A stretch of 33,884 nucleotides of DNA from contig CAYVCF010000003.1 of assembly GCA_964450135.1 (NCBI GenBank), positions 1 to 33,884 on the forward strand, given 5' to 3'. The notes below the pieces were generated by a model that worked only from the letters and a program-made list of their open reading frames with translations, ran no database searches and was not told the origin of the DNA. Every line of letters begins with the position of its first letter. The stretch's first letter is position 1. The stretch is from Candidatus Woesearchaeota archaeon (lineage in GTDB: Archaea; Nanobdellota; Nanobdellia; Pacearchaeales; GW2011-AR1). Positions 1 to 33,884 of the stretch are shown piece by piece. The position numbers and the translations under genes are program-made.

Positions 1-62
1 ATTTTTCGAGGCTCGGATTTTGGAGGAGAAAAAACTTCGTTAAATTCCGATGTTAGACGAAA

Positions 63-190
63 TTTTTTCTTCGGCTGAAATTTAAATCTCTTATTTGCCA
101 ATCCCCCACCCGACGGAAAAAGCAGTTTTCTTTCAGAAAACAGATAGCAAAAACTTTCAGTTTTGGAAATTAATAATTGAGATGGGGGCA
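63..190. repeat. Left arm of a long imperfect inverted repeat bracketing the 248-1282 gene
   Basis: Four blocks are perfect reverse complements, in mirrored order, of right-arm blocks. They are ttttttcttcggc (63-75), aaatttaaatctc (78-90), cggaaaaagc (114-123) and gagatgggggca (179-190). Their partners are 1391-1403, 1372-1384, 1345-1354 and 1300-1311. Confidence 0.75.
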
Positions 191-247
191 CGAACGATGA
201 AACGAAAACTAAAACCTTTTAAATAACCTAATTTTAATAAGAATATT

Positions 248-1282
248 ATGCTAAGTAAAACATCAAAAATACTTTTAGGAATTTATGCATTTTTGCTTTT
301 AGTAATTCTCTTAACTTTTTCAGATAGTTTTGGATTTTTCTTGTTGATTGGAACAGGATTATTTACCTTGGTTACTTCAATATTTGTCGTAAACGATGTT
401 AAAAAACTAAAAAATTCTTTAACATCAAGAATCTTTAGTGTTGTGCTAATTATTTTAATCCTTTATTTTGCAATTATGCTTTTTTATGGGTTAGGCAACA
501 TAGGAGTAGGAGAAAAAGGACTTGTGTTTATGTTCTCCTTATTTGCTATGTTAATCTTTGCTGGACTATCCTTAGTAATTGGTATTATATTGGTTGTAAT
601 AAATAAAAATCAAAATGTTGAGAATAAACCAAACAAAATTCTTTCAATAATCTTAATCGTTATTCTTGCCTTATTGTTTTATAGTTCTGCTGTTTCAAGT
701 ATGGCAAGATTAACAGGTTCGTCTGGATTTTGTTCAATGCATATTGAAATAAAAAGTAACTCTTTTATCTTTGTTAAAGGTATGCAAGATTCTTGCATTT
801 TTAGAGTTGCTTTAGATAATTCAGATATTGCTCAATGCAAACAAATAAAAGACTCTTATGTAGATGTAGCAAATTCTCTAAAAAACAAATGTATTCTTAA
901 TGTTGCAAGAGATTTAAGTGATACAAGTCTTTGTTACCAAATAACAAACGACAAACAAAGACAAGGGGATTGTGTTAGGTATATTGGAGAGAATACAGGA
1001 GACCTTTCAATATGTGAAACTCCTGGTGTTGATAGAGATATGTGCTACTCCAATATTGCTCGTGGAGAAAGAGAAAATGGAAATCCTGAAATATGCAGGT
1101 ATATAGAGAACAATGAATCTAGATATCACTGTTATAGCATAATTGCAATAGATAAGAGAGACCCAAGTATATGTGAAAAATATTTCCCAACAGACGCTGT
1201 TTTAATACAAGAAGGAGTAAATCCTGCTGATTACTCAAAATCAAAATGTATTGTTGATGCAGAAAAAGGATATTTTAATTAA
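248..1282 (+). CDS. Polytopic membrane protein with a Cys-rich repeat C-terminal domain (hypothetical)
   Basis: 344-aa ORF. The N-terminal ~160 aa contain several hydrophobic helices. The C-terminal half has about 12 Cys in a recurring C-x(15-18)-C pattern with D/N-rich spacers. No family recognised. Confidence 0.7.
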   Translation: MLSKTSKILLGIYAFLLLVILLTFSDSFGFFLLIGTGLFTLVTSIFVVNDVKKLKNSLTSRIFSVVLIILILYFAIMLFYGLGNIGVGEKGLVFMFSLFAMLIFAGLSLVIGIILVVINKNQNVENKPNKILSIILIVILALLFYSSAVSSMARLTGSSGFCSMHIEIKSNSFIFVKGMQDSCIFRVALDNSDIAQCKQIKDSYVDVANSLKNKCILNVARDLSDTSLCYQITNDKQRQGDCVRYIGENTGDLSICETPGVDRDMCYSNIARGERENGNPEICRYIENNESRYHCYSIIAIDKRDPSICEKYFPTDAVLIQEGVNPADYSKSKCIVDAEKGYFN

Positions 1283-1299
1283 TTCTAACTAATGACTAC

Positions 1300-1403
1300 T
1301 GCCCCCATCTCAAAACTCTTCTTTTTAGGAAAAAGAAGCAAAAAGCTTTTTCCGTCCCCCGCCCAATTTTGGAGATTTAAATTTCTTAACGCCGAAGAAA
1401 AAA
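1300..1403. repeat. Right arm of the inverted repeat bracketing the 248-1282 gene
   Basis: tgcccccatctc (1300-1311), gctttttccg (1345-1354), gagatttaaattt (1372-1384) and gccgaagaaaaaa (1391-1403) pair with the left arm 63-190. Confidence 0.75.
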
Positions 1404-1731
1404 CTCACTCCTTTCAGTCGTGCCACATTGCATTCTCGCTATCGCTCGGGTCGTTGAACAGGCATTAAACGGCTCGGACTTTGCAAGTCCTCGACCCATA
1501 TTTTTAGGAAATTTATAATCTTTTTAGATAGTTCGAAAAACATCGCTTAATCGCGATGTTCTATTCAATTTTTGAGTAATTATTTTTTATAAATTTTTTT
1601 ATTTAAAACAGACACATTTAGACGAGAACTAATTTTCGGTTTTGACTGAGATATATGTCATGGTCTTATACAAAAAACAAAACCAACCGCAACATATTTA
1701 AATAAGATTTTGCTTTTACAATTATAAGGAG

Positions 1732-2019
1732 GTGAAAGTGATTCCCAAGAATCACAAAAAAAAGATGGCAAAGAATCAAATGCCTGTTGCAAAAAAGAGC
1801 AGTGGACTAAAAAAAGTTTTGTCTTTTGTTGCATGGCTTACAGGAGTAATTGTTTCGTTAGTTGTCGGCAATGCGTTGATAATCGGAACATTAGTTCTTC
1901 CTCAATGGTTAGGCGGGGATACTCAAGCAGGGATAATTGTCGCTATGGCTGTTGGATGGATAGTGATTATCACAACTTTATTAAGCGTTGTCTTAGCAAT
2001 TATTCACGCAATCAGATAA
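1732..2019 (+). CDS. Small lysine-rich N-terminus / two-TM membrane protein (hypothetical)
   Basis: 95-aa ORF with two clear hydrophobic helices. aggagg at 1727-1732 overlaps the called GTG, so GTG 1738 or ATG 1765 may be the true start. Confidence 0.55.
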   Translation: MKVIPKNHKKKMAKNQMPVAKKSSGLKKVLSFVAWLTGVIVSLVVGNALIIGTLVLPQWLGGDTQAGIIVAMAVGWIVIITTLLSVVLAIIHAIR

Positions 2020-2069
2020 TTTTTTTTCTACTTCTTAACTTTTTTAAATAACGATTAATTCATTTAATT

Positions 2070-4254: not shown

Positions 4255-4734
4255 AGAAAAAATAATGCAAAAAATCTTTACTTATGTTTTTCGTCGGCAA
4301 AATTGTTGAGCAAAGTTAATTGCAAAAAATTATTTTCAAAATAAAGAAATTGCTTAAAATTTTTGCATCTCAATCACAGCAAGTTGCGGGGTCTTGCGAA
4401 AATTTTTTTCTACGCAACCGGCAACACAGAAAACAATCTCCAATTTATTTTCTCCGTCGATGTTTTCTGTTCTCCCCAAATCCGCGAATAAATCAAAAAG
4501 GATTTGGTGATTTTCTATCTCTCGCCAAATTTCTTTATTTGTCAGTTAATTTGCCGAGGCCAGAAAATACCGACGACAAAAAAATTTTCTGTATTTCAAT
4601 TTGTTTCGTAGCAAGCTACGGGGTATTAACCAAAATTGAAAATAATAGAAGATATAGTTTGTAATAACTCATAACTCAATTCTCGTCGCGAATTTCAATT
4701 TTTTGAAAAGTATTTTTTATTAAAATTTTAAGAA

Positions 4735-4992: not shown

Positions 4993-4993
4993 T

Positions 4994-5665: not shown

Positions 5666-5680
5666 ATTATTTATAAATAT

Positions 5681-6487: not shown

Positions 6488-6559
6488 ATTTTTTTATGTA
6501 TTGTTTTATTTTTAAAGATTGTTATTGTGCAAGAGTGTTATCGTATAATCCCTTTTTAA

Positions 6560-9418
6560 TCACAATAGTCCAATCACGCCTTTTTTATCTTTAATTTTAA
6601 ATGAAATTGTCTTTTTAAATCTTTCCTTGTTAGTTGTAACATTTTCAATAAAAAATTTTATCGACGACGAATTTGTTTTTTCTTCAATGGATTTTCTGTG
6701 TTTCTCGACGATGTTTGCAAATTCTTTATCTGCGACAATTCCAAGTTTAACAAAATCTTTTTTATTCAGTCCGATATTTTTTCTAAACTCTTGAATGTTC
6801 CTTGAAAGCTCGCGAGCATAACCTTCTGCTTCAAGTTCAGATGTTAATTTTACATCAAGATCAACAGAAATAATTTTAGAATTTTTATTTTCTTTTAAAA
6901 ATAATTCCTTGACATTTAATTGCGATTTTATGATCTCTTGCAGTTCGTTATTTAATTTTAAATTTTTTCCAAAAATTTTAGCGTTCGCCAACGGCCACTT
7001 CAATCCAATTTTAATTTTATCTCTTTCACGAAGTCCTGCTGAAACAATTTCTCTTACAATTTTCATTTCGCAAATAATTTTTTCATCAATTTTTTTATCG
7101 TCGTGATTTGGCCAATTTTCAAGATGCACAGATTCGTTTTTATTATTTATTGTTTGATAAATTATTTCTGCAACAAACGGCATTATCGGAGCGATAATTT
7201 TTGAAAATTCATTTAATGCATATTCAAGAGTTTTGATTGCGTTTTCATCTTCTCCAATTCTATCCCTGTTTATTTTCACATACCAAGTTGAAAGATCGTC
7301 GACAAAATCTTTTATCTCATTGCAAACCTTTATTGTATTATATTTTTTAAAATGTTCTGTAGAATTTTTTATCAACTCGTTCAATCTTGACAAAATCCAT
7401 TTATCTGTGACCTCCTTTGAATCGGAATATTTTTTATTTGAATTTTTTTTATTTATCTCGTAGAAATTTTTTACATTGTAAATTAACAACAAAATTTTTT
7501 TATAAACCTCTTCCACGCCTTTTTCTGAAAAATTAAAATTATCTGCGTTCATCACGCTTGTTGAGACCAAATAAAATCTCAAAGCATCTACCCCATATTT
7601 TTTTATTAAAATATTTGGATCTGGAAAGTTGCCTTTTGACTTTGACATTTTTTGTCCATCTTCGGATAAGATCGTGCCTGTTGTTAAAACATTTTCAAAC
7701 GGAATTTCATCAAATAAAATTGCAGACAAAACAATCATATAATAAAACCACGCTCGAACTTGTCCGATATATTCGACGACAAATTGCGCAGGAAAATTTT
7801 TTTCAAAAAATTCTTTATTCTCAAAAGGATAATGAAACTGAGCGAAAGTCATTGAGCCCGACTCAAACCAGCAATCCAAAACTTCAGGAACTCTTGTCAT
7901 TTCTTTTCCGCATTCGCATTTTAATTTTATTTTATCAAGATAGTCCTTATGCAAATCAATTTTTCCTTTGATATTTTTTCCTTCTTTTTTTAATTCCCCC
8001 ATGCTCCCGATTACTTTTATTTTTCCGCATGAACATTTCCAAACCGGAATCGCAGACGCCCAATATCTGTTTCTTGAAATATTCCAATCCGGCGCTGTTT
8101 CAACACTGTGTCTGAATCTGCCGTCTTTTAAAAATTCAGGATACCAATTTATTTTTTTATTTAGCTGTAAAATTTTTTTCTTTATTTTTTGAATATCAAC
8201 AAACCACGACGGAAGAGGCATATAAATCAGCGGGGTCTCGCATCTGCAACAAAACGGATATTCGTGTTCTGTTTTTCTCACAGAAATAATTTTATTTTGT
8301 TTTTTTAAAAATTCAATTATTTTTTTATTTGTATCAAAAATATATTCTCCTGAAAAATCTGCAACTTCTTTTTTGAATCTCCCTTTCTCATCAACCGGCT
8401 CAACAATAGAAATATTATTTTTTTTAAAAACCTCGTAGTCCTCTTCTCCATACGGCGCAGTGTGAACAATTCCTGTTCCATCTTCTGCCGTTACAAAATC
8501 TCCAAGCAAAAATCTGAACGCGTCTTTTTTATTTTCATAGTAAGGAAACAAGGGTTCATATTTTATTCCTTCCAACTCTTTTCCGACGACAATTTTTAAA
8601 ATTTTGTATTCTTTTTGTTCCTTGAAATATTTTGAAATTAAATCTTTTCCAAATAAATAAATTGTTTTGTCTGACTGATCTTCAAGATAAGCATATTCCA
8701 TTTTTGGGTTTACAGTCAGCGCAAGATTTGAAGGCAAAGTCCAAGGCGTTGTTGTCCAAGCCAAAGCATAAACTTCTTTGTTATTGAATTTGTCTTTTAG
8801 TTTGAATTTTATTGTGATAGATTCGTCCTTGACATTTTTGTAAGAATTATCCATCGCGATTTCAGATTTTGCTAAAGGCGTTGAACACCGAGGACAAAAC
8901 ATCAAAACTTTTTTCCCTTCATAAATAAATCCTTTTTCCCAAAGTTGTTTAAACGCCCACCACACGCTTTCAATGTATTCATTGTCCATTGTTTTATAAG
9001 AATTTCCAAAATCAACCCATCGCCCAATTTTTTCAACCATTTTTCCCCATTCTTTTGCATAAGTCAAAACTTTCCCTCGACAAAATTTATTAAATTTCTC
9101 AATTCCTATTTTTTCAATTTCATCTTTTGAATTTATTTTCAATTCTTTTTCAGCAATATTTTCAATCGGAAGTCCGTGACAATCCCATCCCCAAACTCTT
9201 TTTACATAACGATCATTCATTGTCCAAAATCTTGGGAAAATATCTTTCAACACCGACGCTAAAAGGTGACCATAATGCGGAAGCCCTGTTGCAAACGGCG
9301 GGCCGTCGTAAAAAATATATGGCTTTGATTTTTCAGTTTTTTTCAAGGACTTTTCAAAAGTTTTATCTTTTTTCCAAAATTCTAAAATCTTATTTTCCTG
9401 TTCAGCAATGTCTGTCAT
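6560..9418 (-). CDS. ileS: Isoleucine--tRNA ligase
   Basis: FYDGPPFATGLPHYGH (HIGH region), KMSKS and the editing-domain WTTTPWTLPSN motif. 952 aa. Confidence 0.93.
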   Translation of the reverse strand: MTDIAEQENKILEFWKKDKTFEKSLKKTEKSKPYIFYDGPPFATGLPHYGHLLASVLKDIFPRFWTMNDRYVKRVWGWDCHGLPIENIAEKELKINSKDEIEKIGIEKFNKFCRGKVLTYAKEWGKMVEKIGRWVDFGNSYKTMDNEYIESVWWAFKQLWEKGFIYEGKKVLMFCPRCSTPLAKSEIAMDNSYKNVKDESITIKFKLKDKFNNKEVYALAWTTTPWTLPSNLALTVNPKMEYAYLEDQSDKTIYLFGKDLISKYFKEQKEYKILKIVVGKELEGIKYEPLFPYYENKKDAFRFLLGDFVTAEDGTGIVHTAPYGEEDYEVFKKNNISIVEPVDEKGRFKKEVADFSGEYIFDTNKKIIEFLKKQNKIISVRKTEHEYPFCCRCETPLIYMPLPSWFVDIQKIKKKILQLNKKINWYPEFLKDGRFRHSVETAPDWNISRNRYWASAIPVWKCSCGKIKVIGSMGELKKEGKNIKGKIDLHKDYLDKIKLKCECGKEMTRVPEVLDCWFESGSMTFAQFHYPFENKEFFEKNFPAQFVVEYIGQVRAWFYYMIVLSAILFDEIPFENVLTTGTILSEDGQKMSKSKGNFPDPNILIKKYGVDALRFYLVSTSVMNADNFNFSEKGVEEVYKKILLLIYNVKNFYEINKKNSNKKYSDSKEVTDKWILSRLNELIKNSTEHFKKYNTIKVCNEIKDFVDDLSTWYVKINRDRIGEDENAIKTLEYALNEFSKIIAPIMPFVAEIIYQTINNKNESVHLENWPNHDDKKIDEKIICEMKIVREIVSAGLRERDKIKIGLKWPLANAKIFGKNLKLNNELQEIIKSQLNVKELFLKENKNSKIISVDLDVKLTSELEAEGYARELSRNIQEFRKNIGLNKKDFVKLGIVADKEFANIVEKHRKSIEEKTNSSSIKFFIENVTTNKERFKKTISFKIKDKKGVIGLL

Positions 9419-10270: not shown

Positions 10271-10781
10271 AATTTAGAAAGTTTTTTTGAGTTTATAAGT
10301 TTTCTTTTGTGAATATTGTAAAGTAAAAGAGCTTTGGTGAAACCATAAAAAAGCGTTAAGTCAAGTTCATAACTTAACCTAAATCTCATTTGGATAAGCT
10401 TTTACTCCTCGATGAAATCTTTTTTCATTAAACCATCTTCGCCATTTTTCTATGCATTTGTCGTCGAGCCACAGCGGAAAAGCAAAAGCAACGAATTTAT
10501 TATAAGAGATTTTTATTTTCTGACTTCGTTAATCCTCGTCGGTAATTGGGAAGTCCACAGAATTTTGCATCCTGAAATTTGTTTCAAAAAATATTTAAAA
10601 TTAGTTGAAGAAAAATTTTCTAATCGGGAAGTTGGTTAATTTTTATTTATTTTATTTTTTGAATAAATTTAGCACGAGCTAAAATCTTTTTATTATTTTT
10701 GGATTTACAATTTAATTTTTAAAAAAGTTATAACCAAAATTTAATTTTTTCAAGAACCTTGATTTAAATTTTATAATTAAT

Positions 10782-10833
10782 AAACCCGTTTAAACTGGTT
10801 TGTTCGGAATACTTAATAACAGTATCTCCGAAC
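10782..10833. promoter_or_regulatory. GTTTAAAC-centred 20-nt imperfect palindrome followed by a 12-bp bulged stem-loop
   Basis: aaacccgtttaaactggttt (10782-10801) is palindromic with one mismatch. gttcggaatac (10802-10812) pairs with gtatctccgaac (10822-10833) with one bulge. A near copy of the palindrome lies at 15036-15055. Confidence 0.45.
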
Positions 10834-11057
10834 AGGATTTTTTAAAATAATTTACCCCTAAAAAATTTCAAGAAAAATATACCCCTCCGATTGCTCGGAG
10901 AGTTATGTCTAAATTAAAAAAATATATCGATAGGAAATATTAAGGGATAAGACAGAAAAAATTTTTAAACAAAACATTTAAAAACCGCCAAATCAAAATA
11001 TTTTTGTAGAGAAAAGGAAATGCACTATTCTCTTATTGATTAAACAAAATAAGAAAA

Positions 11058-13361: not shown

Positions 13362-13362
13362 A

Positions 13363-14748: not shown

Positions 14749-15035
14749 AATTATTTTTATGACGAGAGATCTTTGAATTATAAATCTTGCAAAGCAGTTA
14801 AATTAAATAATACACGCGACTTTGTCGCGAGTAAATTTGGTTCCGAAGGCATAGGATTTAATTTACCCAAAATCCGACACTTATCAGGATTTTTTCTCAG
14901 AAAAAATTAATGCAAAAAGAAACTTTTAATCCTGATTATTATGATTTTCTCGTCGGTGTTCAACAAATTGAAAAAATTTTAGAAAACAATCACGCAAATG
15001 TCTGCCACTTTAGTGGAGGGTTGTTTACGATTAGC

Positions 15036-15055
15036 AAACCAGTTTAAACTTGTTT
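15036..15055. promoter_or_regulatory. Second copy of the GTTTAAAC-centred imperfect palindrome
   Basis: aaaccagtttaaacttgttt. The 26-nt stretch 15036-15061 matches 10782-10807 at 23/26 positions. Confidence 0.4.
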
Positions 15056-15095
15056 GTTTGGGGATATTGCATAAACTTTTTGTATTGGTTTTATT

Positions 15096-18136: not shown

Positions 18137-18137
18137 T

Positions 18138-19171: not shown

Positions 19172-19729
19172 TTAACTGCATTCCAATTTCTGCAAAACTT
19201 TTGCTTCACCGCAAGTCACAAATCTGTTTTTGTTTTTGAATTCTTGAAATCTAAATGGAATTATTTCAATTGAATAAGGATTTGCAAAAGAATAAGGAAC
19301 TTGAAAAATTGCGGTTTTCTCGTCGTTAGATTCTAATGCGTTGTAAAATCTTAGCGAGCCTCCGTGTTGTGTCGCAGAATTTCCAACTCCAGCGAGTTCG
19401 CTTAAAACTTTATTAAAATAATTTGATAAATCTTTTGTTCCTATTTTTTGCTCTTCGCTTTCTGTTACTCTTATAAAATATCCATCAATGTTAAACTTTC
19501 CGCTATTTTTTAAAATAATTTTAATTTCTTTTACGGTCTCTCTATCTGGAATTGGTAAATTTACGCAAGATAATTCTTTAATTAATATGGAGGTCTCTTC
19601 AGGACATTTTAATTCCTCTTCTGGAACATATGACTTCAACCACAAGTAAACACCGACGCTGATTATTATTACAAATAAAATTAAAAGAACATAACCCACG
19701 ATTTCGCTCAATCCTTTTTTATTTATCAA
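19172..19729 (-). CDS. Archaeal type IV pilin-like protein, probable TTG start
   Basis: From TTG 19729 the protein reads (M)INKKGLSEIVGYVLLILFVIIISVGVYLW, a class III signal peptide. The track's 79 extra N-terminal residues are low-complexity and overlap spacer repeats. C-terminal IEIIPF...C...C is as in the other pilins. Confidence 0.7.
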   Translation of the reverse strand: MINKKGLSEIVGYVLLILFVIIISVGVYLWLKSYVPEEELKCPEETSILIKELSCVNLPIPDRETVKEIKIILKNSGKFNIDGYFIRVTESEEQKIGTKDLSNYFNKVLSELAGVGNSATQHGGSLRFYNALESNDEKTAIFQVPYSFANPYSIEIIPFRFQEFKNKNRFVTCGEAKVLQKLECS

Positions 19730-19786
19730 AAAACCTTGTGGGTTTTTACCCCCCACTAAAGTATGGGGTTTGTTTTGGTTTTTTGA

Positions 19787-19850
19787 CACAAAAATTTTGT
19801 TTTCTGTTTTTAATTTTTGTGCAGAGAAAATTCGTCGTGAAATTTTCTCT
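19787..19850. other. Two adjacent perfect 10-bp stem-loops upstream of the pilin-like gene
   Basis: cacaaaaatt (19787-19796) pairs with aatttttgtg (19812-19821). agagaaaatt (19823-19832) pairs with aattttctct (19841-19850), with loop cgtcgtga. Confidence 0.6.
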
Positions 19851-19949
19851 TGTTCCCAAAAAAATACGCGCGTAACTAAACTACAACATAAATGTCGTGG
19901 ATTTTTTTTAGGACTTAAAAAATTTCTGCGGTTCTTTGATTTAAAATTT

Positions 19950-20471
19950 TTATTTTTTAACAACATATTGATTTCCTTTAATTTCCTGAGCGATTATAAA
20001 ATAAAAATTTTCTCCTGGGTTTAATTTAAAATTATAAGAGGTGTCTTTTATTTTTACTTCAATTTCTCCTGAAGCAGACGCGCTGATTCTTTCTTTTTGA
20101 TAGCCCTTTTCGCTAATTATTAAAGTGAACGATGTCTCTGGAATTGTCACAGAAACAGTTCCTGTTTCTAAATCCCTGTAACTCGCAATGTAAACTCCGT
20201 CGGTATTTCCAAAAATAAAATAAATTTCTTTTTCAGTTCCTGCATAAGCAGAATAAAGTCGCGTGAAATTTTCAAGCAAGGTTTCTATATTTTTTCTGTT
20301 GTAAATTCCGTAATCCAAAACCTCTTCGCTTTCAATTCCCAGTTCTTCTTTTAAGCTGTAAATTTTTACATTTTCTGAATTATCAGAATAATTTCTAACA
20401 GCAAAAAAACCTGAGATGATTGAAATTATAATTATCGCAGATAGCAAATATGCTTGTCCTCTTTTTTTCAT
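19950..20471 (-). CDS. Pilin-like protein (KRGQ-type class III signal peptide)
   Basis: MKKRGQAYLLSAIIIISIISGFFAV N-terminus. 173 aa. Confidence 0.6.
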   Translation of the reverse strand: MKKRGQAYLLSAIIIISIISGFFAVRNYSDNSENVKIYSLKEELGIESEEVLDYGIYNRKNIETLLENFTRLYSAYAGTEKEIYFIFGNTDGVYIASYRDLETGTVSVTIPETSFTLIISEKGYQKERISASASGEIEVKIKDTSYNFKLNPGENFYFIIAQEIKGNQYVVKK

Positions 20472-20548: not shown

Positions 20549-23500
20549 TTATCTTCTCTTCAAAATCAAGACCCCGATAATTAAAATACCGACGATAAAT
20601 ATTCCTGCGATTAAATAATAAATCGCATTGGATTTCTCAACTCCATTTTCACCTTCTCCTGCAAAAATATTTCCTTTAGTTATTTTTACATACAGATCTC
20701 CAAGTCCGGTTAAATTTTTGAAAATATTTTTCTTTCCATTTTTTAATTCTACATTTATTTCAACATTGTCTTGTTTGATTATTTTTCCTGTTGATAAAAT
20801 AGTGTCAATTTTGCTTGTTGTTTTTCCAGTTAATTTTATTGCCTGGTTTTGCAGTTGTTCTTCTGTAATTAAATTTTTCTCTCCTAAAATAATTAAGTTT
20901 CTATTTTCTGGAGAGCTTGGAATATTTTCTAAAATTTCTATTTGCTCGTCAATAAAGTCCCCTTCTGCAAATAAAGATGAAACTCTCAAATTGTAAATTC
21001 CTTTTTTTGTATCTTCAGGAATTTTTAAATATAATCTTTTTGCGATTTTGTCGTCGTCGCTGTCTTTGCCTTCTATTTCAAATGTTTCGCTTTGTGTAGA
21101 AATATTCAAACCAATAATCTCTATTTTTATTTTTCCCTGAACATCATCTTCTCCAATATTTTCCAAGGTGGTTTCTACTGCGATTTCATAGCCCTCATAA
21201 ACAGAGGTCGGAGTGATTTTCACGTCGCTGATAACAACTTTTTCTTCTGGAATTTCAAAATTAATTTTAATATATTCTTCGTTGCAAATTGTTTCATTGT
21301 CTTCATCTTCTGCTTTTACATAAATGTAATAATCATTTTCTTCGTCCAAATCCTCTGGCGTCTGAATTTCAAATTCAATTGTCTCATCTTTTGATGACTT
21401 TAATTTTACATCTTGTTTGAAAGTTTCAATTTCTTTGTCATCGCTTAAATCATAAAGCACGACTTTTAATTTAAATTCTTTTTTCTCATCAAAATTGTTT
21501 TCAATATTTACTTCTCCTTTTATTGTCTCGCCAACTTCAAAGTCGTCTTCGTCGTCGGGATTTTCAATATCTAATGCGATTGTTGAGTCAGGTTGTTCAC
21601 ATGTCTTTATATCTTTGAACCCAGGAATGCATTTTATTGAACAGCACAAATCACAATCTTCTGCTAAAAGATTTACTCCTTTGCAGGTCTCTTTTGATGA
21701 ACAAATAAATCCGTTTTGTTGCGAACAATTTTGTTGCGCCTTTAGGACAAAAGTTGAAAATGTTGGAACATTAAAACTTAATTTTCCTAAAACAGCGTCG
21801 TAACTTATATTTTCGCAAATATTTTCTGGACAAATTTGGTTTACATTATTTTTGTTGAATGTGAAATCATCATTATAATAAATTGTCGGAGTTTTTTTAA
21901 ATCCTAACTTGTAAAAGGTTACTTTTGCTGGAATATTTTTTAGTGCTTGGAAAAAATTTGAATCCACTCCGATTAATCCGTTTAATATTTCTGTATAGCT
22001 GTCTAAATCAACAATGTCATTCATGTCTACGCAATTTAAGAATTCAATTTTTCCGTGAAAAATTCTTTCTAAGATTAAATTTTGAACACAATCTAATTCT
22101 GTTTCATCTAATTCTGAAAAATTTGTTGTTTCTCCGTTGTATTTTTCTGTAATTGGGAATTTACTTCTTACAAGAGTCCAGTTTTTTGAATTATGTAACA
22201 CGTCGTCTTCAATAATAAACATTACATTAAATGTTCCGTTGTTTCCGTTTCCATTATTTGTATACGAATTTGTGTCGCTTACAACCAAAACTCCGTCGAC
22301 AAACCACTTTGTTGTGATTGTTCCTTGAGCATCTGGGTCTGTCCAGTTTACACTAAAGGTTATATCTGAGTCCTCTGTTGTCAAGATTTTTCCTGTTGGT
22401 GAAAATGAATTTATTACTGGCGCGACTGGTTTATTTACGACTTTTATGTTTGCGATTTCTTCATCCCAAAATTCTCCATCTGTAACATTAAAAACAAAAT
22501 TATAATCCCCTGAAGAAACATAATTAATATTCCACTTGAATAATCCAGTTGTTGAATTTAAACTTCCGAAATTTGCGTTTGTGTAATATCTTAATGCGTC
22601 GTGGTTCGTGTCTGTTGCAGTTAATTGTATTGTTAAATTTTCACCTTCATTAATTGTTTTGTCTCCGATAAAACTTAAAACTGGTGCGACATTTTTTTCG
22701 CAGTTTACAATTAATAAATTTTCCAATGTGTTAAAATTTCCGTTGCCTCCATTTTGGAAAGTTCCATTTGCAGAACATTTTTTTTCTGAAGTTACATTAA
22801 CTCTGAATTTTGCTCCAGTGTTAAATCCAATCTGGTCTGATGTATCAAAATATCCGTTTCCTCTTAATGAAGAAAATATTTTTGAATCATCAACAATTCC
22901 TGAATATTTGTAGCCCTTGTTTGTTCCGTCGAGGATTTCAATTGTGAAAGTTGTTCCTGCTGGCGCGACTTCTGTTCCAATATTTATTTTTCCGCGAACA
23001 TAATTTACCATTAAGTCATCTGTTGCATCACTTTGAGTTGGAGGTTGAGAAACATTTCCGTTTGCATAACCTTTTGTATTTTCCAAAAATTGCCAATCCC
23101 CGTCGGTGTTTGTATCAACCCCGTTTGGAATTCTTTGCCAAGTTTTTGAAGTCGCAGTACTTTCTGCAAGAGTTGAAGTTTCGTCAATAAGATTATCAGA
23201 AGAATCTTTTAATGTCACAAATTCATCGGCATTATTTAATTTTGTTGCAGTTAATTCATAGACATAATAAGAATTTGCATTTATTGTGGTAGATAAATTT
23301 TTAATTAAACTCGGAGAAGTTAATCCGTCGTATAATTTCCAATTTGTTAAATTAACCGCAAAACTATTTGGATTATAAAGTTCAACCCATTCGTTACCTG
23401 AGTCGGTTCCAGCAGGATTTGATTCAAATTCATTTATTAAAATTGTTGGGGAAGAAGAGCTAGAAATTGTAATTTGATTTGCTCCTGATATTGCAGGAGT

Positions 23501-23866
23501 TGATGAACCCAAACTTTCAAATCCATAAGTTCCTGAAAATGTGTAAACCCCTGAAGTAGTTAGAGCAGTTAATGTATAAGTGTAGGAAGTTGAAGTTGCT
23601 CCGCTGATTACTATCCATTTTAAGTGTCCTGTTTGGGTCGTATCTCCCCCCCCATTATTATTTATTGTCCATAATGTCGACGGCAAAATTTCATCAATTG
23701 CATAGAATGTGTCTCCTCCACTCACAGCAACATTTAATGTTACAGAAAAACTTTCTCCAGGAGTTAAAGTTGTTTTTGAAAAACTTCTTGTGACACTTGA
23801 AGCACTTGCTAAATTTAGTAAAACAAAACATAAGACAATTGACAAAATTATTTTTTTATTTATCAT
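20549..23866 (-). CDS. Large surface protein: signal peptide, lamin-tail domain (LTD), Ig/cadherin-like repeats, Cys-rich module, acidic CARDB-like repeats, C-terminal TM anchor
   Basis: LTD signature ILINEFESNPAGTDSGNEWVELYNPNSFAVNLTNWKLYD...NNADEFVTLKD. Ig-like repeat PVLSFIGDKTINEGENLTIQLTATDTNHDALRY. C-terminal AIYYLIAGIFIVGILIIGVLILKRR. I prefer ATG 23866 (MINKKIILSIVLCFVLLNLASA), which overlaps the upstream stop (TAATG). Confidence 0.85.
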   Translation of the reverse strand: MINKKIILSIVLCFVLLNLASASSVTRSFSKTTLTPGESFSVTLNVAVSGGDTFYAIDEILPSTLWTINNNGGGDTTQTGHLKWIVISGATSTSYTYTLTALTTSGVYTFSGTYGFESLGSSTPAISGANQITISSSSSPTILINEFESNPAGTDSGNEWVELYNPNSFAVNLTNWKLYDGLTSPSLIKNLSTTINANSYYVYELTATKLNNADEFVTLKDSSDNLIDETSTLAESTATSKTWQRIPNGVDTNTDGDWQFLENTKGYANGNVSQPPTQSDATDDLMVNYVRGKINIGTEVAPAGTTFTIEILDGTNKGYKYSGIVDDSKIFSSLRGNGYFDTSDQIGFNTGAKFRVNVTSEKKCSANGTFQNGGNGNFNTLENLLIVNCEKNVAPVLSFIGDKTINEGENLTIQLTATDTNHDALRYYTNANFGSLNSTTGLFKWNINYVSSGDYNFVFNVTDGEFWDEEIANIKVVNKPVAPVINSFSPTGKILTTEDSDITFSVNWTDPDAQGTITTKWFVDGVLVVSDTNSYTNNGNGNNGTFNVMFIIEDDVLHNSKNWTLVRSKFPITEKYNGETTNFSELDETELDCVQNLILERIFHGKIEFLNCVDMNDIVDLDSYTEILNGLIGVDSNFFQALKNIPAKVTFYKLGFKKTPTIYYNDDFTFNKNNVNQICPENICENISYDAVLGKLSFNVPTFSTFVLKAQQNCSQQNGFICSSKETCKGVNLLAEDCDLCCSIKCIPGFKDIKTCEQPDSTIALDIENPDDEDDFEVGETIKGEVNIENNFDEKKEFKLKVVLYDLSDDKEIETFKQDVKLKSSKDETIEFEIQTPEDLDEENDYYIYVKAEDEDNETICNEEYIKINFEIPEEKVVISDVKITPTSVYEGYEIAVETTLENIGEDDVQGKIKIEIIGLNISTQSETFEIEGKDSDDDKIAKRLYLKIPEDTKKGIYNLRVSSLFAEGDFIDEQIEILENIPSSPENRNLIILGEKNLITEEQLQNQAIKLTGKTTSKIDTILSTGKIIKQDNVEINVELKNGKKNIFKNLTGLGDLYVKITKGNIFAGEGENGVEKSNAIYYLIAGIFIVGILIIGVLILKRR

Positions 23867-24552
23867 TAACACCCCGCTCCTGCTTTCCAAAAGCCAATTG
23901 CATTTAGTAGGTTTGACATTGAGACACTTCCAGATTTCCAACCGCTTATATAATTTAATAATTCAGACATATTTATTTTTCCATCTCCGTCGCTGTCTGC
24001 GTTAGTTGCACAGATGCTTGCCCCGTCGTAAACAACTTCAAGATACGGCGAGTTTATATTATCTGGATTGTACTCTTTTGATGCAAACATTATCAAGTCA
24101 TTTTCTCCATCTTCAATTAAAACAAATGAAACTTGCGAAGTTTGAACATAAAATAAAATATTAAACTCATATCTTCCAGAACTTGTGATTATTTTTGATT
24201 CAACTAAATTTGTTTCGCTTGGTTTGTTGTTCCAATTTATTGATTCTTCATTCCAATTATTATTTGAAACAAAATTTAATTTTGCGATTTCTCCTTGTTC
24301 AGGCATTGCAAAAATTGAAAGTTTTGCAGAAGTAATTGTTTTTCCATTTAACGACGATAAATCAAATTTTAAATAGCTTCTGTCTGTTCCATGACTTAAT
24401 TCGTGTCCGACTCTCAAAGTTGTTTCAGACCCGTAATTTGAATTTGGATTTTCTTTTTCAACATATGCGTCATCTGTTGGATAAATTTTCATTGTTCCTG
24501 CGCTGACGATTTGGCTCATTAATAGTATCATGATTATTATAACTCTTTTCAT
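23866..24552 (-). CDS. Secreted DNRLRE-domain protein with C-terminal dockerin-like repeat
   Basis: PTDDAYVEKENPNSNYGSETTLRVG...RSYLKFDLSSLNGKTITSAKLSIF matches the DNRLRE pattern. C-terminal DSDGDGKINMSELLNYISGWKSG / MSNLLNAIGFWKAG looks like a duplicated dockerin/EF-hand segment. Preferred start is MKRVIIIMILLMSQIVSA at 24552. Confidence 0.7.
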   Translation of the reverse strand: MKRVIIIMILLMSQIVSAGTMKIYPTDDAYVEKENPNSNYGSETTLRVGHELSHGTDRSYLKFDLSSLNGKTITSAKLSIFAMPEQGEIAKLNFVSNNNWNEESINWNNKPSETNLVESKIITSSGRYEFNILFYVQTSQVSFVLIEDGENDLIMFASKEYNPDNINSPYLEVVYDGASICATNADSDGDGKINMSELLNYISGWKSGSVSMSNLLNAIGFWKAGAGC

Positions 24553-26813: not shown

Positions 26814-26968
26814 TTTAATTTTAGAACGCATTTCTTTAAATAAATTTATGAGACAGAAAGAATATATTGAAGTGAAATAAGATTAAATTTTCAAGAAACA
26901 ATTAATGTAAAACTAAATTTTAACTCGGGGTTTTTGGGTTCTGCAAGATATTTTCTCGTCGTGAAATT

Positions 26969-27232
26969 TCATTTATATATTTCGTCATGATGAGCATAAT
27001 CAAGAAGACGAATTATTCTCTCATTTTCAAGAATTTCGTAGGTCAATACAAAATTTCTAATATGAACTCTCCATTGTCCAGACATATTTGCAGTCAAAGG
27101 TTTTCCTATTTTTGGGTTTTCAATTATTTCATTTATTTTTCTTGTTAATATTTCAAATTGAAGTTTATCTTTTTTTGATAATTTAGAAAAAATTCTGTCT
27201 AAATGTTCTGAAATTAAAATCCCATAAACCAT
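26969..27232 (-). CDS. RelE/ParE-family type II toxin
   Basis: 87 aa. KIGKPLTANMSGQWRVHIRNFVLTYEILENERIIRLLDYAHHDEIY matches the RelE/ParE C-terminal pattern. It directly follows a small antitoxin-like gene. Confidence 0.7.
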   Translation of the reverse strand: MVYGILISEHLDRIFSKLSKKDKLQFEILTRKINEIIENPKIGKPLTANMSGQWRVHIRNFVLTYEILENERIIRLLDYAHHDEIYK

Positions 27233-27240
27233 AACTTAAT

Positions 27241-27468
27241 TTATGAATACTTCTTCTTAAAATTTTCTATACTTCCCACTTTAACAAATCTCCCCTTTCT
27301 TATAGATTCCAGTTTATTGAGATATTCTGCGCGTATTTTAGGAACAATTTCTATTTGAGATTTAATAAAAATATTTATTTGTTTGCTCATGCTTAAACCA
27401 TGTTCTCTGCAAAATTCTGCGAATTGATTATAAATACTTTCTTCTAAATTAAATGTTTTTATTACCAT
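27241..27468 (-). CDS. Antitoxin candidate (RHH/DinJ-like) of the RelE/ParE pair
   Basis: 75-aa ORF 8 nt upstream of the toxin. N-terminus MVIKTFNLEESIYNQFAEFCREHGLSMSKQINIFI fits a ribbon-helix-helix-like fold. Confidence 0.6.
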   Translation of the reverse strand: MVIKTFNLEESIYNQFAEFCREHGLSMSKQINIFIKSQIEIVPKIRAEYLNKLESIRKGRFVKVGSIENFKKKYS

Positions 27469-28031
27469 TAAATAATCTTATATAATGTTATTTAAATACT
27501 TTTTGTTTTAAATTTTTTGGTTTTTTGATATCGGGGGCAAATTTAAAAATAAATCTCTCGTCGAGAAATTAAAAGAAAGAAAAAATACGCACTTCGTGCA
27601 ATTTATTTTGCTTCAAAATTGGTTTTGCTTAATTTTTCCGCAGAAAAATTATTAATCTGAAAAGAATCTTTACTCTTGATTATTGGTTTTGAAAATGAGA
27701 GCAAAGTTTTTTGTAAATCGTGACTTACTTTAATTCAGGATTTAAAAGATTATTTATTTCCCAAAAAAATTTTTTCGCGAGCGAGCCAAATTATTTCAAA
27801 AGATTTCTCCCTCTCTTGTTTTCAAAAAAAAGAAATAAAAAATAAAGACAACCTTGCGGTTTTCTTATAGAGTTTTCCCTCTATTTGCGGTTAAGCGATA
27901 TTTTTTTATGCCTCCTTTCATATCGCGGAAAAGACAACTTAGCAGTTTTCTTTTTAATCTTTCGCGTTTATTTTCAGTTTTTAATTTTCTCGTCGACAAA
28001 CTGAAACCAAAAAATCCAATGGATTTTTGGG

Positions 28032-28151: not shown

Positions 28152-28192
28152 TAAAAAATTCAAAGAAAAAAAATAAAAAATAAAAAATTAAT

Positions 28193-29359
28193 TTAAACAG
28201 CTCTTCCTACAAAGTGGAATTTTCCGTTTGTGAATTTACCATGACATTCTTCTGGTTCATCTACATCATCATCAGTTAAGTCCAATCTAAATGTTATAGA
28301 CATACTTGCGCCTTGAGTTAAAAGAGATGCTTCTCTCCAGTCATTTAAGATTCTGCACATATCTTCAATATGTCCTTCGTTTTCATCTCTTCCACTATAA
28401 CTTGTAAGTGTAGTAAATTCATCATCATTTGCTTCACAAAGTTCTCCTTCACTTTCTCCTAATCCAGGATATCTGTTGTTATTATCTCCAGAATTTCTTG
28501 AGCCCTTTGTAGCATAGTAACTGAATTTATCATATCTAATTCCATTGCCTGCTCCGCAAATTGAAGTTGCATTATTTGTATCTGTGAAATAATCATCAGA
28601 TGCAATATACATATCCATTATCACTCCGCTATCTGCTTCAGCGCTATTCTTAAGTTTAATTGCATTTGAAGTTGCAACTTCACCTGGAATAACTTTTCCG
28701 AAGCTGATTGTTGTCTCGTCAAGCGAAACACCAAGTCCTGGATTGAAATTTAACCAATCAATATTTCCAGTTGTAATTAGGGTAGTATTTCCACTATCAC
28801 ATTCTTCATCATCATCAACCTTTATTGCAACTGAATTTGGAGAAGTCCATGTTGAATCAACAATTAATCTACAAATGTAAGTGTTTCCATCTGCACCACT
28901 ATAACTATCTCCAAAAGCAGTAGCATCAAAAGAAACTCCCCCATCAGTTAAATCTACTTCAGCACAAGGAGCAACTGGGTTTGTTCCAACATATAGATTT
29001 ACAGAAGCAATATCGTCATCTGTATCTCCATCTTCAACATAAACATAGTAATCAACTGTTTCACCAGTAAATACATAGTTCATTCTTTCAGAGACAAAAA
29101 ATCTATCATAACCATTTAAATTATATTTTCCCCCATCATCTTCCCAACCATATTCGTCAGCAGTATAAACTGTCTGGTCATTTGGATACCAGCCTCTTGC
29201 TGTGTGGTCTATGAAAATTTCAGGTTCATGACAAACAGGAGTTGGTTCATCAACATCTACAGTTATTCCTCCGCCAATTCCAGCTCCATCAGCCAAAACT
29301 ACAGGCATTACAGATGTCAATAACATCATAACAGCCATTAAAGCTAAAATTTTTTTCAT
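28193..29359 (-). CDS. Secreted acidic Cys-containing protein, compositionally distinct, probably highly expressed (hypothetical)
   Basis: Signal peptide MKKILALMAVMMLLTSVMPVVLA. D/E/T/G-rich mature part with about 9 Cys. Strong SD (ggagg, 29365-29369 on the minus strand). Lacks A/T runs and has no CGTCG word. Confidence 0.75.
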   Translation of the reverse strand: MKKILALMAVMMLLTSVMPVVLADGAGIGGGITVDVDEPTPVCHEPEIFIDHTARGWYPNDQTVYTADEYGWEDDGGKYNLNGYDRFFVSERMNYVFTGETVDYYVYVEDGDTDDDIASVNLYVGTNPVAPCAEVDLTDGGVSFDATAFGDSYSGADGNTYICRLIVDSTWTSPNSVAIKVDDDEECDSGNTTLITTGNIDWLNFNPGLGVSLDETTISFGKVIPGEVATSNAIKLKNSAEADSGVIMDMYIASDDYFTDTNNATSICGAGNGIRYDKFSYYATKGSRNSGDNNNRYPGLGESEGELCEANDDEFTTLTSYSGRDENEGHIEDMCRILNDWREASLLTQGASMSITFRLDLTDDDVDEPEECHGKFTNGKFHFVGRAV

Positions 29360-29385
29360 TTTCTTTTTTTATAACCTCCTTTCAA

Positions 29386-29404
29386 TTCTATTGTAAACTT
29401 TGTT
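29386..29404. promoter_or_regulatory. 8-bp palindrome/stem-loop in the leader of the 28193-29359 gene
   Basis: aactttgt (29386-29393), taa, acaaagtt (29397-29404). It lies between the SD and the upstream AT-rich region. Confidence 0.4.
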
Positions 29405-29572
29405 AAACAAAGTTGTTAATTCATTTCTGAAATAACTATGAAGTTCTGGAAAATTATTTTTTAGTCCATCTCTTTTTGCTCTCTTTTTTATCACCATATT
29501 GAATTCAAGAACAACTTCTTTAAAAGTATTATTGTCGTCGACATATCTATTTTTTGTTATTACTCAACTCAA

Positions 29573-31988: not shown

Positions 31989-32040
31989 AAGTCAATTTTT
32001 TTGAGGAATTATTTAAATATTATTGTGGTGAAATTTTTTC

Positions 32041-32565
32041 ATGGTTAAAGAAATTGAGTGTTATGTAAGCCAAGTTGAGATTGAAAGAGAAAAAAGAGAA
32101 AGGGAAGACTTTTTTAAATTTTGGCTCAAAACAGCTTCACATTTTTTTACACCTCCCTCTTTTAGAGTAGATGAAATAAGAACCTCTGATCCTGAAATAG
32201 GAGTTCATTTCATTGATCCCCGTATTTATCCAAATCCATTAAACGATAGAGTAAAGAGAGAATTAGAAGAATTTGACGCGAAAAATGTAAGTAATTTAGT
32301 GGATAATCCTGTTCGCTCAGAAATAGTTCAACGATCATGGATATATTGTGGATTTTGGAGTGCAGTAGATATTTATCCATTTAAGTCAAAAATTAGCATA
32401 AATTGTCCAGAAGTTTATACTCCGGCAAAACAAATGGCAAAATCCATTGAAAGAGTTTATCATAAAGATATTTCTTTGCTAATTGGATATCCAAGAGAAA
32501 ATAAGATATTAAATACCTCCACAATTAAAAAATTATTAAAATATTTTAGAAAAAATGTCAGATAA
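32041..32565 (+). CDS. Hypothetical protein (174 aa), first gene of the Nudix/MBL operon
   Basis: Clean ORF overlapping the Nudix gene start by 11 nt. No family recognised. Lacks the CGTCG word. Confidence 0.6.
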   Translation: MVKEIECYVSQVEIEREKREREDFFKFWLKTASHFFTPPSFRVDEIRTSDPEIGVHFIDPRIYPNPLNDRVKRELEEFDAKNVSNLVDNPVRSEIVQRSWIYCGFWSAVDIYPFKSKISINCPEVYTPAKQMAKSIERVYHKDISLLIGYPRENKILNTSTIKKLLKYFRKNVR

Positions 32566-33055
32566 AAATTTAACACATTATGTTGTTGTAACAGGAATTT
32601 TAGTAAACAGCGAAGGAAAATATTTAATTACAAAAAGAGCGGACTGGGAAAAAGCGTTTCCTGGAAAATGGGCTGTGCCTGGAGGAAAACTTGAAGTTCT
32701 TGATTATGTTCTTAGAAAAAAAGACACGCCGTCGCATTGGTATAATATTTTTGAAGATTTGCTGAAAAGAGAAATTAAAGAAGAAGTCGGATTAGAATTT
32801 GAAAATATTGGTTATATAACTAGTTTGGTTTATTTAAGAGAAGACAAAATTCCTTACTTGATTGTAAGTTTATATGCAAACGCGAAAAGTGAAAATGTAA
32901 AACTTTGCGACGCTTTGACCGAATTCGCTTGGGTAAATTTAGAAGAAGCGAAAAAATTTGATTTAATCGACGGGATTTATCAAGAACTTGAAATCTTAGA
33001 TAAGAAAATAAAAGGTGAGACAAAATTTGTCGAGCAGTGGAAAGCAAAAATTTAA
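32555..33055 (+). CDS. Nudix hydrolase with an insertion inside the Nudix box
   Basis: PGGKLE ... REIKEEVGLEF, with about 20 extra residues between the G-x5-E part and the RE-x2-EE part. Confidence 0.8.
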   Translation: MSDKNLTHYVVVTGILVNSEGKYLITKRADWEKAFPGKWAVPGGKLEVLDYVLRKKDTPSHWYNIFEDLLKREIKEEVGLEFENIGYITSLVYLREDKIPYLIVSLYANAKSENVKLCDALTEFAWVNLEEAKKFDLIDGIYQELEILDKKIKGETKFVEQWKAKI

Positions 33056-33110
33056 AAAAAATATTCTACAATTCCTAAAACCTTAAAAACCAAAATTGAT
33101 TTTCTTAATT

Positions 33111-33776
33111 ATGGATTTTGGTGAAATAAAAATTAGCTGGCTTGGAAATTCTGGCTTTTTAATTAAGAACTCAAAAGTAATTTACATTGATCCTTACAAC
33201 ATTAAAGAAGAAAGTGAAAAAGCAGATTTTATTTTTCTGACTCATAGCCATTATGACCATTGTAGCGTCGCTGATATTCAAAAAATTTTAAAGCCAGGAA
33301 CAAAAATAATTGCACCTGCTGGCTGTCAAAGCAAAATTGTAAGATTTGATATTCCCATTGATATTCAGTTAGTTGAAATAGGAAATGAATTTTCTTTAGG
33401 AGAAATAAAAGTTTCTGTTTTTCCTGCTTACAATATTGACAAGCCATTTCACAGCAAAGACGAGCAGTGGGTCGGGTATTTATTAAAGATAAAAAATTTT
33501 TTAATTTATCATGCAGGAGACACGGACTTAATTCCAGAAATGCAAAAACTTACAGGACATAATCAAGAGGATAAAAAATTTTTGGCTCTGCTTCCTGTTG
33601 GCGGAAGATTTACAATGAGCGCTGAAGAAGCAAGCGAGGCAGCGAAATTAATAAAACCGGACTTTGCAATTCCAATGCATTACGGAAGTGTTTCGGGCAA
33701 CAATACCGACGCTGAAGAGTTCAAAGAAATTTGCGAAGCAAATGGAATAAGAGTTGAAATTCTGGAAAAAAATTAA
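33111..33776 (+). CDS. Metallo-beta-lactamase-fold hydrolase (UPF0173-like)
   Basis: THSHYDHC (HxHxDH) motif and later conserved H/D residues (YHAGDT, PMHYG). I prefer ATG 33111 over the called TTG 33096. Confidence 0.85.
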   Translation: MDFGEIKISWLGNSGFLIKNSKVIYIDPYNIKEESEKADFIFLTHSHYDHCSVADIQKILKPGTKIIAPAGCQSKIVRFDIPIDIQLVEIGNEFSLGEIKVSVFPAYNIDKPFHSKDEQWVGYLLKIKNFLIYHAGDTDLIPEMQKLTGHNQEDKKFLALLPVGGRFTMSAEEASEAAKLIKPDFAIPMHYGSVSGNNTDAEEFKEICEANGIRVEILEKN

Positions 33777-33884
33777 TTACAAAAGTTTGAATTATAAATT
33801 TTATGCGATTTTACCGACGAGAAAATATCTTTTGCAAACTAGTTGAACAAACGAGTTTATGCAGTATCCACCGGAGGCATTTAG

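Follow-up and report, generated by a model that had tools for sequence, protein, structure and literature searches.

A 33,884-bp stretch of DNA from a Candidatus Woesearchaeota archaeon (contig CAYVCF010000003.1, positions 1–33,884; G+C 30.6%), hereafter the window, is densely scattered with the 5-bp palindrome CGWCG (W, A or T). This word is very probably a feature of the DNA itself that is actively retained, and we tentatively read it as an archaeal counterpart of the highly iterated palindromes (HIPs) of cyanobacteria. The window carries 93 copies (54 CGTCG and 39 CGACG), or 2.7 per kb, close to the roughly 90 that an initial annotation of the sequence had counted by eye; its back-of-envelope expectation of about 10 agrees with the 12.9 copies predicted across the whole window by base composition (zero order) and the 11.4 predicted by a first-order Markov (dinucleotide) null. 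The excess also stood against stricter nulls. A third-order Markov model of the whole window predicted 49.4 copies, and permutation of synonymous codons within each of 38 open reading frames (ORFs) predicted 22.9 ± 4.1 against 82 genic copies observed (z about 14), or 25.7 when each codon was drawn given its amino acid and the next base. For the 4.8 kb of non-coding DNA, dinucleotide shuffles predicted 1.75 copies against 12 observed, a number reached in 0 of 1,000 shuffles. Whichever null was used, CGWCG was the most over-represented 5-mer, with a fold excess of about 8 by the dinucleotide null and 3.6 by the codon null. Because the excess survives codon- and dinucleotide-aware nulls, the observed-to-expected ratio (o/e) stays far from the value near 1 that an unremarkable word would give. 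The further proposal that most CpG dinucleotides lie inside the word did not hold, as only 177 of 820 (21.6%) do. The copies, dispersed over positions 1–33,884 and assigned to neither strand, start at 111, 2855, 3236, 3858, 4292, 4455, 4571, 4684, 4929, 5101, 5767, 5770, 6662, 6665, 6706, 7099, 7297, 7774, 8207, 8584, 9254, 9304, 9784, 10069, 10072, 10462, 10537, 11232, 13118, 13404, 13658, 13910, 13913, 13985, 14490, 14610, 14613, 14951, 15234, 15390, 15393, 15804, 15903, 15969, 16838, 17313, 18100, 18512, 19321, 19654, 19833, 20198, 20590, 21052, 21055, 21223, 21550, 21553, 21796, 22201, 22294, 22597, 22927, 23101, 23326, 23678, 23988, 24024, 24352, 24643, 24739, 24817, 25147, 25528, 26229, 26232, 26957, 27559, 27991, 29536, 30034, 30327, 30570, 30783, 30975, 31395, 31844, 32730, 32908, 32968, 33266, 33707 and 33815.

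One codon-aware test was applied to about 170 loci anchored on isoleucyl-tRNA synthetase (IleRS), drawn from GTDB genomes and Joint Genome Institute metagenomes and given here as L-numbers, with the ORFs of relatives called mechanically; the sequence covered amounts to about 40 kb of the source organism and 4–23 kb per relative. Of the AT-rich loci, 120 were non-redundant and at least 8 kb long, and 14 of these were trait-positive, defined as z ≥ 5: the window (z 18.7), L093 (IleRS 76% identical; 53 copies versus 7.3 expected), L094 (39 versus 7.7), L058 (61 versus 17.8), L025, L107, L155, L096, L106, L171, L170, L124, L009 and L021. The remaining loci lay within about ±2.6 z, apart from L114 (3.4), L152 (3.0), L101 (2.8), L078 (−4.8), L138 (−2.8) and L159, which reached 6.6 in one run on only 4 copies and was under the cut in the 120-locus survey. 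That trait-negative loci sit near z 0 indicates that the codon-aware null is not generically biased. In a neighbour-joining tree of IleRS, the trait-positive loci fell into at least three separate clades with trait-negative neighbours between them. The closest genome relatives by IleRS were metagenome-assembled genomes of Pacearchaeota and Woesearchaeota (DPANN), at 59–66% identity. The IleRS protein was also found on Rifle groundwater metagenome contigs 99.9–100% identical to the window; six such contigs are public for this population, and their similarity leaves them uninformative on strain polymorphism at CGWCG.

Within genes, copies occur in each of the three reading frames, as had been proposed, yet with a strong skew, 64 of 82 reading NNC-GWC-GNN (frame 2). 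The skew arises because opportunities differ, Asp or Val before a codon starting with G being common. Relative to the codon-preserving null, the excess was 3.1-fold for NNC-GAC-GNN, 4.1-fold for NNC-GTC-GNN, 6.4-fold for NCG-ACG and 6.7-fold for NCG-TCG, and it was about 7-fold in non-coding DNA. The excess is shared by both strands and by frame 1 as well as frame 2, so it acts on DNA rather than on protein or translation, which is what the initial annotation had suspected. The consequences for codon choice are large: in four trait-positive loci taken together, Asp codons between a C and a G read GAC in 107 of 125 cases (86%), compared with 27–36% for Asp after A or T in the same loci and 14–33% for Asp in trait-negative relatives. 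The [DV][GAVDE] dipeptides, which provide the frame-2 opportunities, were in slight surplus in trait-positive proteomes (1,595 versus 1,419 expected, o/e 1.12; 0.97 in trait-negative ones), a hint that the pressure for CGWCG reaches into protein sequence. An artefactual excess, arising from amino-acid composition, codon usage or a translational codon-pair preference, might draw on the frame skew and on the somewhat greater general frequency of C-ending codons before G. Its probability is practically nil: nulls that keep the protein and its codon usage, or the codon given the next base, remain far below the 82 genic copies, the roughly 6-fold excess in frame 1 and 7-fold excess in non-coding DNA lie outside its reach, and under the same null nearly all trait-negative genomes stay within about ±2.6 z. 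Three codon-aware nulls rule it out, together with the frame-by-frame comparison and the excess in non-coding DNA.

The signal is confined to the 5-bp core. The initial annotation had extended the word to a 9-mer consensus, TT(G/C)TCGTCG. The underlying counts and coordinates were reproduced, with 12 copies of TTGTCGTCG (6 forward, 6 reverse) and 9 of TTCTCGTCG (7 forward, 2 reverse), save that the copy given at 7773 lies at 7774; the longer consensus itself was ruled out, because the maximal-order Markov o/e was 1.9 at the 5-mer and only 1.0–1.3 for lengths 6–9, so that no information lies past the 5-mer, and the flanks vary among lineages. T precedes CGWCG at position −1 in 61% of the window's copies versus 26–46% in other trait lineages, a preference due in part to the strong avoidance of ACGT in this genome. 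A polar word of the Chi or FtsK-orienting polar sequence (KOPS) type, another precedent raised earlier, was likewise excluded: CGWCG is its own reverse complement, so polarity of this kind is impossible, and the oriented 9-mers carry no independent signal. Pooled over trait-positive loci, CGWCG had an o/e of 3.41 compared with 1.16 for the mixed-flank word CGWCA, 0.88 for CGWCC and 0.73 for AGWCG. These values of 0.7–1.2 rule out a multiplicative half-site model, in which CGWC would be favoured and AGWC disfavoured. The effect is thus tied to the palindrome and not to its halves, which points to a symmetric, dimeric reader. The specificity also shows in CpG-to-CpG spacing: CpG pairs one base apart (CG-N1-CG) were 3.1-fold enriched, nearly all with a W centre, and other spacings were near 1 except for CGCG (2.1-fold).

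Existing copies are conserved between relatives. The IleRS gene (6560–9418, minus strand), which was used as anchor to collect the related loci, holds 10 copies whose positions are conserved in L093 and L094. We compared these two loci with the window by a test of the kind applied to HIP1, using orthologues of 59–99% protein identity in which 68–76% of codons are identical at conserved residues, and counting shared use of the word at synonymous opportunities common to both loci, stratified by frame and word. The word was used by both the window and L093 in 11 cases versus 3.7 expected (z 5.4), by the window and L094 in 12 versus 4.6 (z 5.1), and by L093 and L094 in 11 versus 4.7 (z 4.3). In three pairwise comparisons from which near-identical genes had been dropped, the synonymous C within CGWCG was kept in 14 of 15, 14 of 15 and 12 of 13 cases (92–93%), compared with 25%, 63% and 62% for the C of non-motif CpGs and 45%, 42% and 61% for other C (Fisher P = 2.6 × 10−4, 5.8 × 10−5 and 5.9 × 10−3 in an earlier version of the test). 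The higher retention of C within the word indicates that existing copies are protected, whether selection or site-directed repair is responsible. Trait-positive pairs at greater distance offered too few common sites to judge conservation, and the intergenic DNA of the window could not be aligned with that of L093 or L094, so that the conservation result pertains to coding sites.

Protection of this kind would equally be expected if the word were a neutral by-product of biased mismatch correction, in which a T:G repair activity of the Vsr or Mig kind, acting alone or with a 5-methylcytosine (m5C) methyltransferase, restores C in CGWCG-like contexts; such repair would make new sites as well as keep old ones, with the word itself having no function. 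We consider this unlikely, although the words that neighbour CGWCG speak on both sides. Pooled over eight trait-positive loci, in which CGWCG itself reached 257 copies versus 61.8 expected (4.2-fold, z 27), CGWTG/CAWCG was depleted (o/e 0.78, z −3.6) and the near-cognates CGSCG (2.19) and CCWCG/CGWGG (1.71) were enriched, a pattern that fits relaxed specificity, whereas the other deamination product, TGWCG/CGWCA, was not depleted (1.10); the remaining one-off words stood at 0.73 (CTWCG/CGWAG), 0.70 (AGWCG/CGWCT) and 0.68 (GGWCG/CGWCC). This pattern lends some support to a relaxed-specificity repair or drive process, and it is not a clean very-short-patch repair signature. CpG is at its normal level in trait-positive loci, with a median o/e of 0.91 versus 0.50 in the others (often 0.2–0.4) and 1.03 in the window, as such repair would predict; because CGWCG copies make up only about one-fifth of CpGs, this shift is broader than the word. 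Two further features are left unexplained by a site-local process, namely the avoidance between copies described below and the 12% surplus of [DV][GAVDE] dipeptides in trait-positive proteomes.

Gaps between copies in the window look random overall (coefficient of variation 1.07), with nine overlapping tandems (CGWCGWCG) and no gap of 4–35 bp. Against a null that takes opportunities into account by shuffling, within each gene and class, which of them are used, pairs 4–160 bp apart were deficient in the window (16 versus 30.0), L058 (12 versus 23.8) and L093 (8 versus 21.4), and pairs 161–400 bp apart were as expected. There was no such deficit in L094 (22 versus 24.5) or in low-density loci. 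In this test L093 and L094 do not count as replicates independent of the window, with which they share ancestry; copy repulsion is real in two independent lineages and is not universal. Such repulsion would suit the footprint of, or diminishing returns from, an abundant non-methylating DNA-binding protein acting in chromatin, chromosome organization, replication or segregation, with selection holding a minimum density of its sites. The positional conservation of the sites and a palindrome suited to a dimeric reader also fit this explanation, which is distinctly unlikely nonetheless: the repulsion is missing from L094 and the low-density loci, patchiness among close relatives would be unusual for a core chromosomal protein, and no candidate protein was identified.

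The word is missing from some of the window's DNA. Judged by an expectation computed for each gene from its own amino-acid opportunities, one of the sparse segments listed by the initial annotation was significant, the gene for a secreted Asp/Gly-rich protein (28193–29359, minus strand; 0 copies versus 9.2 expected), which is also low in CpG (10 per kb) and in G+C at third codon positions (0.17). A second, gene 248–1282 (0 versus 3.0), was borderline, and neither the restriction–modification module (2 versus 2.4) nor gene 32041–32565 (0 versus 1.3) departed significantly from expectation. The left end of the window (1–1400), which includes gene 248–1282, holds a single copy (at 111) and is strain-variable: in L004, a contig of the same population that is otherwise 100% identical, it is replaced by 2,558 bp of other DNA (L004 11793–14350) with three ORFs of 102, 583 and 82 amino acids. 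All 28 copies of L004 lie in the shared part, and the alternative allele has 0 versus about 7 expected at the window's density. The earlier suggestion that motif-poor segments are recent acquisitions is therefore partly supported: the variable left end agrees with it, and for 28193–29359 the homologue search yielded no donor and no phage family match. The protein family of 28193–29359 is DPANN-specific, and at 75% identity the closest homologue is too distant to point to a donor or to demonstrate a recent acquisition.

Absence from variable DNA is one of several properties that the word shares with DNA uptake sequences (DUS) and uptake signal sequences (USS), and the initial annotation had floated the idea of an uptake signal; the word would then be a ‘self’ signal for DNA uptake or recombination, accumulating by molecular drive. 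The density of 2.7 per kb is within the range of uptake sequences, copies occur in both coding and non-coding DNA, the trait is lineage-specific, the partial even spacing resembles that of USS (PMC1939737), and the slight proteome shift ([DV][GAVDE] o/e 1.12 versus 0.97) and the presence of pilin-like genes in the window would also agree. We nevertheless regard an uptake signal as very improbable. A 5-bp core that lacks a shared flanking consensus gives only about 8-fold discrimination, the palindromic form is unlike that of known uptake sequences and coincides with a known restriction–modification specificity, and archaeal type IV pilins are ubiquitous, so that the presence of pilins is uninformative. 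These organisms are not known to be naturally competent, which likewise counts against it. As for the ‘pilin cluster’ of the initial annotation, ORF 19172–19966 has an archaellin/type IV pilin N-terminal domain and is the sole direct support that we found.

The only DNA methyltransferase in the window is a CcrM/HinfI-like, beta-class N6-adenine enzyme with a DPPY motif (18138–18965, minus strand). It matches CcrM (E = 2 × 10−53) and by this similarity probably makes N6-methyladenine in GANTC. Homologues 72–87% identical are widespread in Pacearchaeota and Nanoarchaeota contigs, and the enzyme resembles a conserved and possibly orphan methyltransferase more than a component of a mobile restriction system. 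The gene stands beside a convergent ORF of 202 amino acids (together 17528–18965), and homologues often lie near an ORF of 202–204 amino acids; GANTC is barely avoided in the window (o/e 0.76). As a determinant of CGWCG excess or of the AGNCT avoidance described below the enzyme was rejected, because contigs with homologues 78–83% identical show no CGWCG excess and no avoidance of AGNCT or GANTC. A tblastn search and motif scan of the loci returned one C5-methyltransferase, in the trait-positive locus L106 and adjoining a transposase, with homologues 68–81% identical that are often next to a conserved gene of about 240 amino acids. This partner ORF is convergent and a candidate endonuclease; the modules occupy 9819–11716 in L106, 10001–12481 in L178 and 10001–12379 in L179. 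A Vsr gene is also present in the modules of L178, L179 and L180, indicating that m5C and very-short-patch repair circulate in these archaea. The occurrence in related DPANN contigs of a C5-methyltransferase with its 240-amino-acid partner and Vsr favours biased repair, whereas the trait-negative state of these contigs and the absence of both Vsr and a C5-methyltransferase from the window argue against it. The L106 family was itself rejected as the cause, since contigs with its homologues are trait-negative, carrying 0–6 copies per 13–21 kb, or 11 versus 19 expected in L179, which is of higher G+C. The window likewise contains no Hpy99I-type restriction–modification pair, and the site is enriched, where the target of such a pair would be avoided or neutral in its host.

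A second palindrome, AGNCT, shows the opposite behaviour. The window has 10 copies in all and 7 in its genes, versus 59 expected there, and AGNCT is avoided in 8 of 14 trait-positive loci versus 9 of 106 others (Fisher P = 5.5 × 10−5, odds ratio 14); pooled o/e for AGWCT was 0.19 in trait-positive and 0.84 in trait-negative loci. Avoidance accompanies CGWCG excess in the window, L058, L025, L009, L093, L094, L171 and L170. Obligatory coupling of the two was ruled out, as CGWCG excess occurs without avoidance in L155, L107 and L096 and the converse is true of L131, L126, L137 and L135; the traits are correlated yet separable. Conversion of AGWCT to CGWCG was also ruled out, since amino-acid changes would be required and AGWCG, the intermediate, shows no enrichment (0.70–0.73). 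We know of no restriction enzyme with AGNCT specificity. Other palindromes are avoided in the window as well under a codon-preserving null, namely ACGT (4 versus 38), TCGA (25 versus 62), GATC (20 versus 57), AGCT (26 versus 64), GTAC (4 versus 27), CTAG (7 versus 35), GGWCC (4 versus 9) and CCSGG (0 versus 5.4). Avoidance of so many palindromes suggests pressure by many restriction systems.

Guided by these results, we propose, with a probability of roughly 0.4, that CGWCG is HIP-like and is read by a methyltransferase specific for it, or by an associated repair system, encoded elsewhere in the genome. CGWCG would then be a genome-wide signal in the DNA of a DPANN archaeon, placed wherever the protein allows, mostly through otherwise rare C-ending codons in NNC-GAC-GNN and NNC-GTC-GNN, and also placed in non-coding DNA; copies, once present, would be retained through divergence. 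The most likely reader would be a dimeric, sequence-specific enzyme, for which the leading candidate is a DNA methyltransferase, because M.Hpy99I and a Bacillus m5C enzyme have precisely this specificity. Copies might be kept by selection on a methylation-dependent function, such as a self or strand mark, or alternatively by methylation-coupled mismatch correction back to the site. Several points weigh against this proposal. The enrichment of 3.6–8-fold is far under that of HIP1, at 15–300-fold, and the targets of restriction–modification systems are normally avoided rather than enriched. Neither the window nor any trait-positive locus yielded a gene for a methyltransferase, endonuclease or repair enzyme specific for CGWCG, and both methyltransferase families on trait-carrying contigs have close homologues on trait-negative contigs. 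‘Genome-wide’ is an extrapolation from about 40 kb of the organism. The excess, its indifference to reading frame and coding status, the conservation of positions, the patchiness among lineages and the absence from strain-variable DNA are shown here; methylation, which sequence alone does not reveal, the nature of the reader and the purpose of the word are inferred. A bolder version, possible though doubtful, is that CGWCG serves as a selectively maintained 5-bp ‘self’ mark, gained independently in several DPANN lineages, probably together with a mobile methyltransferase or repair gene, which dictates synonymous codons, shifts dipeptides and spaces its own copies.

The window encodes archaeal housekeeping functions, including the exosome subunits Rrp4, Rrp41 and Rrp42, RpoK, a TrmB regulator, IleRS, GatA, Dus and a MiaB-like enzyme, alongside the CcrM-like methyltransferase and a large surface protein with a lamin-tail domain (20549–23941, minus strand) that holds 14 copies, mostly as NNC-GAC-GNN. 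Among the non-coding copies, four (4292, 4455, 4571 and 4684) lie in a 480-bp gap between convergent genes (4255–4734), in which the ORF 4320–4664 is missing from public gene calls, and two (10462 and 10537) in a 787-bp gap (10271–11057). Both gaps are unusually long for a compact genome, and neither matched a tRNA or an Rfam family. One copy (14951) lies in a gap between convergent genes (14749–15095), one each (26957 and 27559) in the two gaps on either side of a ParE toxin gene (26832–27864; ParE-family ORF 26969–27232), and one (29536, within GTCGTCGAC) in the divergent intergenic region 29360–29572.

A search of the open-access literature turned up no earlier account of CGWCG over-representation, nor of HIP-like words in archaea. 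Work on hyper-abundant palindromes has, to our knowledge, been confined almost entirely to cyanobacteria, and after 30 years both their origin, by selection or biased repair, and their function are still disputed; a second, independent case in very small archaeal genomes would help. Close relatives differ in the presence of the trait, with about 14 positive loci among 120, spread over several clades, and this opens the question to phylogenetic profiling and metagenomic methylomes; if an archaeal HIP system is indeed at work, its patchiness would let a comparison of presence and absence find the responsible gene and hence the function, long debated, of such palindromes. Through its distortion of codon usage, with GAC at 86% versus about 30% depending on neighbours, the word could also help to bin sequences from these uncultivated organisms and to flag foreign DNA in them.

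Among known systems, very-short-patch repair in E. coli leaves a CCWGG/CTAG footprint, and the Dcm CCWGG/Vsr case resembles CGWCG in being a 5-bp palindrome with a W centre for which repair-driven shifts of the site and its neighbours are a proposed cause, and in that Vsr genes beside C5-methyltransferases exist in related DPANN contigs. It differs in that only one class of deamination neighbours is mildly depleted here and the sampled Vsr contigs lack the trait, and the effect of CGWCG is much larger than that footprint. For the Hpy99I system, no homologue was identified here, and CGWCG is enriched and conserved whereas restriction targets are usually avoided. The recognition sequence is nonetheless identical to the window's word in Hpy99I of Helicobacter pylori (PMC2699513), in the N4-methylcytosine methyltransferase M.Hpy99I (PMC3936762) and in the Bacillus m5C enzyme (PMC9808626). 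Like the DUS of Neisseria and the USS of Pasteurellaceae, CGWCG has a similar density, occurs in genes and spacers, is lineage-specific and hints at an effect on protein sequence and at even spacing, which has been reported for USS (PMC1939737). Unlike those 9–12-bp, non-palindromic sequences with an extended consensus, it is 5 bp long and palindromic and has no shared flanks.

The closest parallel, and the best of the precedents put forward by the initial annotation, is HIP1. CGWCG departs from HIPs in occurring in DPANN archaea, in having 5 bp with a degenerate centre rather than 6–8 bp, in its weaker enrichment (3.6–8-fold versus 15–300-fold for HIP1), in the lack of a cognate methyltransferase in the 34-kb window or the trait-positive loci, and in the accompanying avoidance of AGNCT. 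Like HIP1 (GCGATCGC) and the alternative HIPs, it is a GC-rich palindrome that is hyper-abundant in coding and non-coding DNA, written largely by synonymous choices, conserved in its sites, sporadic among lineages and equal to a known methyltransferase specificity (PMC4390886, PMC5861425). In cyanobacteria, alternative palindromes likewise appear sporadically, and for each there is a methyltransferase with the same specificity (PMC4390886); HIP sites are conserved between related genomes (PMC5861425).

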